Shown in pieces: positions 5,444 through 7,907 of a stretch of DNA of 33,769 nt. The notes under the pieces were generated by a model. It worked only from the letters and a program-made list of their open reading frames with translations, ran no database searches and was not told the origin of the DNA. Source of the DNA: Vermamoeba vermiformis (Eukaryota); the NCBI GenBank assembly GCA_045837725.1, contig JBEWZL010000099.1:62001-95769 (forward strand), given 5' to 3'. Numbering within the stretch: the stretch's first letter is position 1; each line of letters opens with the position of its first letter. The position numbers and the translations under genes were made by a program.

Positions 5444-7907
5444 ATGACAGCTCGCATAATTATCGGTAAGGCAACTCGCAATCGCTCTTTAAATATGCTG
5501 ATTCGATTTTATAATCTTTAATTAACTAAATATTAATATTTTACGAATTTTAGTGCATTATCGATCGAAAAACCGAAATCTGGATCCTCTGCGTTTCGCT
5601 CCTATGCACTAACTATACCCTCGAGCGATTTGTACACCCAAAAAGGCACTACCTACAAACTTCTATTGTAATGTTAACGATTAGCAGATAAGGTTCGTCT
5701 GTGGACGGCCGCACAACTTTCGGGTTGGATGCAACACAACGCGAATCTAACAAACGACCAGATCCAAGTCATTTTAAGCAATAATATGTGCGGCGATGAC
5801 CTATTAGACGCGGATATATCTTCTTTCAAAAAGCTTCGCGCAGAATATCCTAAGGCCACTCGTGAGTTGTGGCGAGCCGTTCAAAAATTCCGGATGGGTA
5901 CGTTAACATGCAATAATAATCATTCACATTAACAACTATATTTATTTCAATATAGCTTTTATGATTCCTACCGAGTTGCGCCCTGAGAGTGCGTCTTTCT
6001 CTCCCGACACTAACGTCCTCGGATTGCCGTTCGTTGGCCGAACTGCTGTGATAGAAAAAGCTCTCGTTGCCATGCAAACACATGCAAATATTGCGAATTA
6101 TTCGAAAACTGAAGGCACAGCAGATCATGTTCGTCTCGGAAATTCTCGTCTTTTTGCTGTTGGCGCACCTGGCATTGGCAAAACTCGATTTGCAGAGGAA
6201 TTTCCACGGCTGCTAGCGGAGCGCAGTACTGGCGAGTTAAAAAAGAAATTAGAAAATGTTAGAACTGTACGGCTCACATTCAAGAGCGGCAAAATGATTA
6301 GCGAAGCAGTAGACTGCAAATGGAAGTACTTTATGGACCAAGTCAATTGGATTTTGACTGCTAGAGCAATTTATGCCATTTACAACGTCAAAGAAAGTTA
6401 TTCGAATTGGTCTGCAGAGCTGTCACGGCTATTAGGCGATGACTTGCCTCAGTGCTTCAACATGGAAACATTTACTGAGGAGTTACTTCATAGAGATCCG
6501 TCTGCAAGTGCAATTTATTTTCATTTGGATGAAGTACAATCAATCACATTACTACCACAAGAGGTTGGTGCAAATATAATTCACACTCTATCAGCTCTAC
6601 ATGCCAAGTACAATACAAAAAAGCACTTGACTTTGTTGCTCTTCACTGGCACAATGCTGTCTGATATTCAGACCATGCTTGAACGACAAGTTGGAGTTGG
6701 AAGTCCAATTGCCTTTCCTCTGGTCAGTTTGCCCATGGAAACACTAGAAGAAGATCAAATCTTCAATATCATTTCTACAATGAAAGCTCAAGGCAAGTTA
6801 CCTTGGCTGAGAACAGATTTGCAGACAAATGTGCCTTTCCTGAAGCTAGTGGCATTCACTGGTGGAGTGCCACGTCTTCTTGAATTGTTGTTTTTTGCTG
6901 GCACTGTTGCAACTGACATCAATGACATGGCTGCAAATTTTGCCACTCAGGTTGTTACCAGATACCCCATGGTTAATTTGAAGCCAGTTTACAATGCATG
7001 CTGCTTAGCTCTTTCTGGCAAAAGGTTTGAACTTGATGCTAAGCTACCAAATGACCCAGAACAAACAATTGAAAAGTTATGTTCCAATGGACATCTTTTC
7101 TTGGCATCTGGCAGGCAGATAACTGTACCTTTTGTTTATGTTTGCTTGACTGTGTTGACTGAAGATCTGGCAAAAGGAGATTTCAAAGACAAACTCACAG
7201 ACTTTCGACAAAAGCTTATTGTTCCCACTCAATTATTGGTTTGGCAAGATTTTGAGACATTTAATTTGCTCTACACCATGGTACAAGTCAAAGCCCTACT
7301 TCACTTCACATGCACAACAATAACTGTCAAAGAGTACTTCCATCATGCACACACCATGTCCAAAAGCATTGAAGCATTGCAATTTAAACTGGTCAACAGA
7401 GACTATGCTGAACTTGGCCACAGTTGGCCAGCAAGTGAATGGCCAATTTCTCAAGCGCATTTGCATCCAGTTTATACTGCAAATATTCTCAGCGCAGTGT
7501 TCCTCAATGCTCCTGGAGCTCCCTTTGATGGTTTTGAATTCGTGGAATTGGCTGATAAACAAGAATACATCATCTTTGCACATCAAAACAAGCACACTAC
7601 TGATGGACAAACAGATTTGACATCAAAAACAATTGTCACTGAGTACAAAAAAGTGCAAGAGGCTTTCAAAAGTTGGAAGATGTCAATGCAAGCGTCTGAC
7701 CAGTTTGACAAGTACAAGAACGATGAAGAGTTAATTGCACTCAAACAAGCAACAAAACGCATTGTTCTTGTTGTGTTCACTAACCGCAGAATAGTAGTAG
7801 ACCCTGAGTATCCAATGCCACATGAAAATTTGATTGTTATCAACAGCCAAGCGCATTTTGGTCCGTTCCAATCAATAACCAAATTTTTCGAAGGCAACAG
7901 GTCCTAA
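5444..7907 (+). CDS. SAM-like header + P-loop NTPase + PD-(D/E)xK restriction-endonuclease-fold protein (Crinkler/RHS 'CR' effector type)
   Basis: Exon about 5685-5897 encodes a SAM-like pattern (VRLWTAAQLSGWM...ILSNNMCGDDLL...RELWRAVQKF). It is spliced (intron 5898-5955) in frame to the 648-aa ORF with Walker A GAPGIGKT, Walker B IYFHLDEVQ, TGGVPRLLE and a C-terminal NAPGAPFD...HQNK nuclease-like motif. The 5' start (5261 or 5444) is unresolved. Confidence 0.8.

Follow-up and report, generated by a model that had tools for sequence, protein, structure and literature searches.

Deep CpG depletion within an NTPase-nuclease gene of Vermamoeba vermiformis: a probable footprint of CpG methylation

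CpG decay in known systems and at this locus

The decay of CpG dinucleotides is a known kind of signal that serves as a proxy for past methylation of DNA. Here, this signal is described in a stretch of 33,769 nucleotides (nt) from Vermamoeba vermiformis (contig JBEWZL010000099.1, positions 62,001 to 95,769 of the forward strand), the whole of which is referred to as the window. Two genes carry it. The first is predicted to encode a nucleoside triphosphatase (NTPase) followed by a nuclease-like domain and is called the NTPase-nuclease gene, and the second, at the start of the window, encodes a protein kinase; the CpG-depleted stretches are named block 2 in the former and block 1 over the latter. 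What is unusual at this locus is that the housekeeping neighbours are spared, and the choice of the target genes and the presence of a sharp and deep domain within an exon are unusual as well.

Mosaic methylation of gene bodies in invertebrates offers the closest comparison. In honeybee, pea aphid and Ciona it results in a bimodal distribution of the CpG observed/expected ratio (o/e), and in honeybee it is the broadly expressed housekeeping genes that are poor in CpG, as summarised in PMC2975444. Judged by that account, the window resembles the invertebrate pattern in that CpG-poor genes lie beside CpG-rich ones on a genome background with an o/e above 1, and in that the loss is balanced by TpG and CpA; it also seems to be tied to the transcription unit and to spare the 5' end. 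It differs from the pattern so described in that the housekeeping neighbours are CpG-rich here while two lineage-restricted genes are depleted, and in that the depletion is much deeper (0.08-0.14) and confined to part of one exon.

Gene-body methylation of the plant type avoids the 5' and 3' ends of transcription units and marks moderately and constitutively expressed, conserved genes. The domain described here similarly occupies the middle of the gene, with about 0.75 kb on the 5' side and about 0.2 kb on the 3' side keeping normal CpG, whereas the class of genes that is depleted differs. In some basidiomycetes, repeats undergo a hypermutation biased to CpG or TCG. With this process, as with repeat-induced point mutation (RIP), the locus has in common C-to-T transitions in a bounded stretch regardless of gene structure; unlike either, it displays opposite RIP indices, no context preference, no duplicate found within the window or at related metagenomic loci and an intact open reading frame (ORF).

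A further comparison is with methylation as genome defence, which in cnidarians is aimed at transposons and young repeats according to the account in PMC8857917. As in that description, few non-housekeeping sequences would be marked in an otherwise little-methylated genome, and the NTPase and nuclease modules themselves are said to be transposon-derived in the review PMC5289972. Unlike the transposon-directed marking so described, no tandem repeat and no terminal inverted repeat of note flanks the gene, no second copy turned up either in the window or at three homologous metagenomic loci (L001-L003), and the gene is predicted to be spliced, lies in a conserved place in a close relative and shows constraint at the protein level.

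Extent and direction of the CpG loss

The window as a whole has a GC content of 0.380 and holds 1405 CpGs, with an o/e of 1.15 for CpG and 1.07 for TpG and CpA. Between positions 6510 and 7440 (931 nt, GC 0.403) there are exactly three CpGs, at 6684, 6873 and 7206, and the o/e values are 0.080 for CpG, 1.36 for GpC, 1.68 for TpG and 1.65 for CpA. An initial annotation of the stretch had given the same count and positions in about 930 nt, together with an abundance of TpG and CpA, and the recount reproduces both. It had also placed the survivors only in the first two bases of Arg codons, with which codon-position analysis agrees, as they fall in CGA, CGT and CGA (Arg260, Arg323 and Arg434 of the predicted protein, P0001). 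Among CpGs of 20 control ORF segments of the window, 92 of 509 (18%) occupy codon positions 1-2, and 0.181 cubed is 0.006.

Segments of 931 nt contain a median of 40 CpGs, and only 0.08% of them have three or fewer, every one at the 6510-7440 locus. When the synonymous codons of the gene were shuffled, with the amino acids and the gene's own codon counts fixed, none of 20,000 shuffles gave three CpGs or fewer (mean 25.5, minimum 13); codons redrawn from the usage of the control ORFs led to an expectation of 40.0 +/- 5.2 CpGs, with a minimum of 22 in 5,000 draws. Thus, the CpG o/e remains below that of other exons after correction for composition. The two regions that had been singled out as CpG-rich are so: the 5' part of the NTPase-nuclease gene (5690-5896 plus 5961-6440) has coding-strand CpG odds of 1.26, and the o/e of the MetRS ORFs ranges from 1.26 to 1.81. 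The GC content drops from 0.457 in this 5' part to 0.403 in block 2. The CpG depletion is genuine and far beyond chance. That chance, amino-acid composition or an assembly chimera produced it is next to inconceivable, given the shuffles, the continuity of the ORF and of its alignment with homologues through both edges, and the presence of contigs from the source run in 30 of 30 bins, where one of the eight pieces listed (7709-8195) lies shortly beyond the 3' edge of block 2.

The limits of the blocks were obtained by a three-segment maximum-likelihood fit on CpG density, with 60 random placements as the null (Table 1). Block 2 has 7 CpGs in 1250 nt, compared with 93 in the 1940 nt before it and 70 in the 1810 nt after it, with a log-likelihood ratio of 29.1 (null maximum 11.7) and strand-symmetrised odds of 0.14 for CpG and 1.66 for TpG/CpA. 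The depletion annotated at 6510-7440 therefore stands, but the domain is larger than the extent first given to it. Its core is flanked by zones of about 200-250 nt with an intermediate density, where CpGs are found at 6302, 6386, 6403, 6426, 6437 and 6499 on one side and at 7456, 7493, 7541 and 7693 on the other. Both edges are graded and both lie inside one exon, the 5' edge falling between the Walker A and Walker B motifs and splitting the NTPase domain. As the edges are graded and the 5' one cuts through a single domain, a chromatin domain fits better than a recombination joint. Block 2 begins about 750 nt past the start of the SAM-like exon, and the density of CpG is normal again about 220 nt before the stop codon; CpG is retained in the first 0.6-0.75 kb and the last 0.2 kb or so of the gene. 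This retention points to a transcription unit whose start was shielded from the mark. The contrast is extreme, with an o/e of 0.08 adjoining values of 1.3-1.9 across about 200 nt of the same exon, which would make the limits of a methylation domain readable from sequence alone.

Table 1. Coordinates of the depleted blocks and of the gene features they overlap or adjoin
Feature	Position	Strand	Remarks
CpG-depleted block 1	1..1655	+	extends past the window start; kinase gene, intron-like gaps and 3' flank
Protein-kinase ORF pieces	187-747, 767-1033, 1245-1478 plus stop (to 1481)	+	stop-to-stop ORF limits, putative gene structure
SAM-like N-terminal exon, CpG-rich	5688..5897	+	putative splice limits set by eye; Pfam SAM_PNT E 0.035, below cut-off
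Putative 58-nt intron, GT..AG	5898..5955	+	predicted from the letters themselves; separates the SAM-like exon from the large one
Large exon, AAA+/STAND-type NTPase then restriction-endonuclease-like C-terminal domain	5956..7907	+	stop codon 7905-7907
Walker A, G-A-P-G-I-G-K-T	6162..6185	+	CpG-rich 5' part; G86, P88, G89, G91, K92 and T93 invariant in 5/5 sequences
CpG-depleted block 2	6441..7690	+	maximum-likelihood limits, wholly within the large exon
Core of block 2	6500..7455	+	only the three Arg-codon CpGs; CpG odds 0.08
Walker B Asp-Glu (D208, E209)	6528..6533	+	within block 2; invariant in the five-sequence alignment, nearly so in the 16-sequence one
Putative nuclease active site, E450, D541, Q560-x-K562	7254..7592	+	all four residues invariant in the five-sequence alignment

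The NTPase-nuclease gene body is not the only sequence affected. The initial annotation had proposed a process targeted at this gene body, and the depletion there is as described, but its exclusivity is lost, as the kinase gene and a distant homologue behave alike. Block 1 has 13 CpGs, compared with 116 in 1656-4000, with odds of 0.22 for CpG and 1.41 for TpG/CpA. At the silent sites of the kinase ORF, none of 68 codons ends in CG (NCG; p 2e-8) and none of 45 has C before G (p 6e-12). The kinase assignment comes from Pfam, where Pkinase matches the piece at 767-1033 with an E of 7.8e-22 and the other two pieces more weakly. The non-coding parts of block 1 are depleted as well: the 177 nt that follow the stop (1479-1655) have no CpG where 9.9 are expected, and 1034-1244 has 3 compared with 9.2. 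Since non-coding DNA is included, the cause is regional and does not lie in codon choice.

Elsewhere in the window no depletion was found, as all other 500-nt segments have an o/e of at least 0.75. Housekeeping-type ORFs are normal, with shares of 0.19-0.40 for NCG and 0.39-0.64 for C before G; these are the MetRS ORFs, whose identity is that of the initial annotation, and the TRAPPC11-like, Vps5-like and KTI12-like ORFs, named from ORF scans made here. The depleted genes are of lineage-restricted types, an NTPase-nuclease and a kinase, whereas their conserved neighbours are CpG-rich. The excess of CpG is marked even in AT-rich, apparently intergenic DNA, for example at 3501-5000 and elsewhere, where an o/e of 1.6-1.9 is found at a GC content of 0.29-0.33.

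The direction of the loss can be read from codons. In block 2, 2 of 101 silent-site codons are NCG, compared with 182 of 747 in the 20 control ORF segments (Fisher p 4e-9), and 2 of 63 codons preceding a G end in C, compared with 235 of 514 (p 5e-13). Codons ending in C that do not precede a G are at a normal level (76 of 154, and 0.43 in controls). All four NCG contexts are reduced to 0.05-0.15 of control, with NCG loss and NTG gain amounting to 0.0116/0.0090, 0.0080/0.0056, 0.0088/0.0033 and 0.0167/0.0155 in the four contexts. In four-fold boxes NCA took up most of what NCG lost (0.31 to 0.51), NCC took up a part and NCT (0.29 to 0.27) nothing. In parallel, coding-strand TpG and CpA reach 1.67 and 1.64 in block 2, compared with 1.06 and 1.11 in control ORFs. 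Away from CpG contexts, codon usage is indistinguishable from that of controls, with p values of 0.72 (block 2) and 0.33 (kinase); five large control ORFs gave p values of 0.03-0.97. The pattern of loss is that expected of C-to-T transitions at the CpGs of either strand, and not of a general compositional difference.

Replacement sites were affected as well. Arg is present in three or all of the four homologues at seven alignment columns of block 2. The target retains it at three of them (CGT, AGA and AGA), and the other four read His (CAC), Cys (TGC), Gln (CAA) and Ser (AGT); in the five such columns outside the block Arg is kept in all, with a CGN codon in four. Long-term deamination of an ORF under purifying selection, as proposed in the initial annotation, is partly supported by the direction of the transitions, the intact ORF and the conserved motifs. 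Selection kept most of the protein but was incomplete, since three of the seven conserved Arg columns are now His, Cys or Gln, all of them one-step products of deamination. With the ORF intact and the motifs conserved, the CpGs that survive are those whose decay would alter Arg.

These data also bear on the view that CpG was purged by selection, for instance to escape a nuclease, sensor or silencing system that reads CpG in these transcripts or in the DNA. Such selection would account for an almost total removal of silent CpGs and for the rise of NCC along with NCA. Moreover, TpA is low too in block 2 (0.42, compared with 0.73 in control ORFs), and low CpG paired with low TpA is known from selection at the RNA level. 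Nevertheless, the replacements favour transition products and not NCT, and conserved Arg residues were changed to His, Cys and Gln, whereas a change to AGR codons would be likelier under selection against CpG. The intron-like and 3' flanking DNA of block 1 is depleted as well, and selection on the transcript would have to leave the first 0.6-0.75 kb of the same mRNA fully loaded with CpG. Selection of this kind is thus very unlikely to be the cause.

Methylation and other explanations

Blocks 1 and 2 are probably, though by no means surely, the footprint of long-lasting, heritable CpG methylation in discrete domains, with the ORF kept by selection. Under methylation, the mark would have covered domains some 1.3 to 1.7 kb long, or longer, and the surrounding genome, with its excess of CpG, would have been unmethylated. 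Methylated C in CpG would deaminate to T on either strand, which would turn CpG into TpG or CpA; decay would be nearly complete at silent sites, while selection at the protein level would have blocked most changes at replacement sites. The residual CpGs of the core would then be those that open Arg codons, since neither decay product of such a CpG keeps the amino acid. In particular, 5-methylcytosine as the cause, its heritable or germ-line location and its persistence today are what we infer. A mutational bias acting on a region in place, with the protein preserved by selection, agrees with the graded edges, the spared 5' end (here and at L001), the depleted non-coding DNA, the native codon usage and the transition bias of the replacements.

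The relatives of the gene are informative in this respect. A scan of metagenomes based on an alignment found three loci, whereas a scan with the single protein found none. L001 is a 9.8-kb contig with a GC content of 0.39 and a CpG o/e of 1.14, which is the composition of the window, and its homologue is 43% identical to the target. The layout is also that of the window, with a SAM-like exon (2802-2996; tblastn 31% over 65 amino acids to the target exon, E 2.5e-10), a short gap and an NTPase-nuclease ORF (3026-4963). Because GC content and CpG excess are shared, this contig probably comes from an organism related to the source. Two other ORFs of L001 served as the reference: in codons 101-500 of the homologue, C before G occurs in 7 of 58 cases (reference 46 of 96, p 4e-6) and NCG in 7 of 92 (reference 38 of 138, p 1.5e-4), while the first 100 codons are near normal (NCG 7/25). 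The L001 homologue accordingly shares the pattern in its loss at silent sites, whereas in L002 and L003, which are near-identical to each other and 35% identical to the target, the trend does not reach significance. A further homologue, P0003, is 65% identical.

Several observations weigh against methylation as the cause. The MetRS, TRAPPC11-like, Vps5-like and KTI12-like ORFs are CpG-rich and the lineage-restricted genes depleted, which is the opposite of the class marked in honeybee, and methylated gene bodies do not usually reach an o/e as low as 0.08. The four-fold boxes fit neither pure deamination nor pro-rata replacement exactly (chi-square p 0.017 for both), as NCC rose too, and relative to the rest of the window the combined excess of TpG and CpA in block 2 (94) is greater than the deficit of CpG (56). 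As to the relatives, the fit on raw density at L001 is borderline (log-likelihood ratio 11.9, null maximum 11.7), and the trend at L002/L003 is weak and non-significant, with C before G in 12 of 40 compared with 16 of 36 (p 0.24) and NCG in 4 of 67 compared with 8 of 42 (p 0.056).

By analogy with known systems, the choice of targets leans towards a silencing or defence type of targeting, as insects mark housekeeping genes and the genes affected here are of the opposite class, although the locus has no transposon-like features. Since the same family appears to be marked in a second organism, the rule for targeting may depend on the family. This can be extended to the proposal that an otherwise unmethylated, CpG-rich genome aims dense CpG methylation or CpG-specific editing at the bodies of conflict-type genes, here the STAND NTPase-nuclease and the neighbouring kinase, and that the mark follows the family across distant homologues in other organisms. 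The extension is unlikely as it stands; if it were true, a family-directed mark could keep potentially self-harmful nuclease genes silent or could speed up their diversification.

Transitions at CpG could also come from bursts of CpG-directed hypermutation in the absence of a stable methyl mark, either homology-triggered as in RIP or coupled to a deaminase, which might diversify fast-evolving conflict genes. A bounded burst could leave both edges of block 2 within one exon, the two genes belong to families prone to being multi-copy, and conserved Arg positions were struck. A water-metagenome run (X4) provides a further point, as it contains a relative that is 92-97% identical to the window and covers 27 of 30 bins of its first 12 kb. 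Among the pieces listed, this relative differs at 38 of 477 positions (8.0%) over 6920-7396 and at 14 of 329 (4.3%) over 7367-7695, compared with 2.5-4.8% in six pieces outside the block; from this divergence, the depleted core may be evolving faster. On the other hand, the edges are graded and not sharp, and there is no context preference such as TCG, as all four NCG contexts were lost. No stop is present in 648 codons, although a burst should turn CGA into TGA. A second copy of either block was found by blastn neither in the window nor in L001-L003, and no listed loose end of the source run lies at a block edge.

The indices of classical RIP can be computed for both blocks. Sequences affected by RIP of the Neurospora type have a TpA/ApT of about 0.89 or more and a (CpA+TpG)/(ApC+GpT) of about 1.03 or less, and the values found, 0.52 and 1.74 for block 2 and 0.78 and 1.46 for block 1, go in the opposite direction. 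Classical RIP, and with it the classical form of the RIP-like process offered in the initial annotation as an alternative to deamination of 5-methylcytosine, is contradicted by these indices and by the intact ORF. Hypermutation in general is a distinctly improbable source of the blocks.

A last explanation is that the DNA was imported, either from a CpG-poor donor (a virus or another eukaryote) or by gene conversion from a paralogue in methylated chromatin. Import has little probability. Codon usage outside CpG contexts is native, as reported above, the 5' edge is graded and lies inside the NTPase domain, and the conserved SAM-like exon and the putative intron are also present at the L001 homologue. 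The X4 relative extends over 27 of 30 bins and not just over the block, which also places the gene in a conserved context; no terminal inverted or tandem repeats of note flank the gene, and pattern scans of a viral contig collection and of prokaryote genomes found no relative. What speaks for import is that the family is small and patchy, with four relatives in a word search of 5.8 billion proteins and 27 representatives at E <= 0.001 among 1.84 billion, and that NTPase and nuclease modules of this general kind are described in PMC5289972 as transposon-derived and mobile among eukaryotes.

If methylation by 5-methylcytosine is true, the two blocks would be ready loci for tracing the factor that brings methylation to individual genes where the genome as a whole is sparsely methylated. 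If neither 5-methylcytosine nor a methyltransferase exists, the blocks would call for a new CpG-specific process of mutation or selection. No DNA-methyltransferase family matched the 21 ORF pieces of the window that were scanned, out of 45 ORFs of at least 90 amino acids.

The encoded protein and its surroundings

The product of the NTPase-nuclease gene still looks whole, judging from an open ORF, invariant columns and a confident model. The ORF is open for 648 codons from an ATG at 5961, and the large exon aligns end to end with four homologues, with 83 invariant columns in the resulting five-sequence alignment, many of them in block 2; a second alignment comprises 16 sequences. In the SAM-like exon, all five Arg codons are CGN. 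The AlphaFold2 model has a pLDDT (the program's per-residue confidence) of 85.9, and in it the putative nuclease residues fall on a helix-strand-strand-strand pattern. With the model of the large exon, Foldseek returned 79 matches at E <= 0.001, the top ones being CED-4, ORC/Cdc6, the archaeal ATPase PABY2304, Avs3, plant NLRs and TnsC, whereas the Pfam AAA matches on the protein are all below their cut-offs.

The C-terminal domain is likely, although not established, to be a nuclease. Modelled alone it reached a poor pLDDT of 62.7, and Foldseek with this isolated model gave no match at E <= 0.001. With VIA-align, the top rows for the same model are mostly PD-(D/E)xK nucleases, with Z scores of 5.2 for AF1548, 4.7 for Avs3, 4.7 for NucS, 4.6 for MspJI and 4.0 for FokI, all of them under 8, the safe level of the tool. 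At Q560-N-K562 (7584-7592) an invariant Gln is found in five of five family members where the classical PD-(D/E)xK motif has Glu or Asp. Given this residue, cleavage may depend on a variant active site, or the domain may lack cutting activity.

The closest described architecture is that of the C-termini of effectors of the Crinkler-RHS type (CR), which combine an NTPase, a helix-turn-helix and a restriction endonuclease (Zhang et al. 2016, as summarised in PMC5289972). The protein resembles them, as far as that summary goes, in that a single polypeptide joins a P-loop NTPase to a downstream, putative restriction-endonuclease-like domain, and in its patchy occurrence in eukaryotes. In a language-model search a cluster named 'Crinkler family protein' was found at 0.95 among the protein's neighbours, while Pfam Crinkler (PF20147) gave no match at E <= 0.1. 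Unlike CR effectors by the review's description, the protein has a SAM-like N-terminus and not a ubiquitin-like LxLFLAK header, and its putative catalytic triad is D...QxK, in a restriction-endonuclease fold that is supported weakly (best Z 5.2).

RNA reads on the gene were uninformative: depth was zero in six bins over 5601-8000, and the two runs come from a relative that is 5-10% divergent. In these runs (X9 and X11), which carry the species label of the source, 92 of 164 and 174 of 225 placed reads are just 90-95% alike to the window, and the label probably spans more than one species-level lineage. Reads of both runs map solely to conserved exons (1601-2800 and 10801-11200). In the window as a whole, Rfam gave no match. 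In a language-model atlas, the clusters nearest to the NTPase-nuclease protein are of Rhodophyta and Mucoromycota, and a MetRS piece pointed to no usable taxon. An origin from the red alga Galdieria was considered, on the grounds of a GC content of 39-41% and the subtelomeric 'archaeal ATPases' of PMC6629376, of the DNMT3 reported from red algae in PMC9998398 and of a report that 5mC in C. merolae does not exceed background (bioRxiv 10.1101/2022.10.24.513474). It was rejected, as the 489-amino-acid ORF described below has too few relatives for a genus of which many annotated genomes exist.

Far from the two blocks, at 30120-33395 on the minus strand, lies a tandem array of paralogous ORFs of 489, 223, 150 and 126 amino acids, with Ser/Thr/Pro-rich tails and hydrophobic C-termini. 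No Pfam family was found above its cut-off for those at 31926-33395 and 30521-31192. The 489-amino-acid ORF has three relatives among 5.8 billion proteins, one at 94% and two distant.

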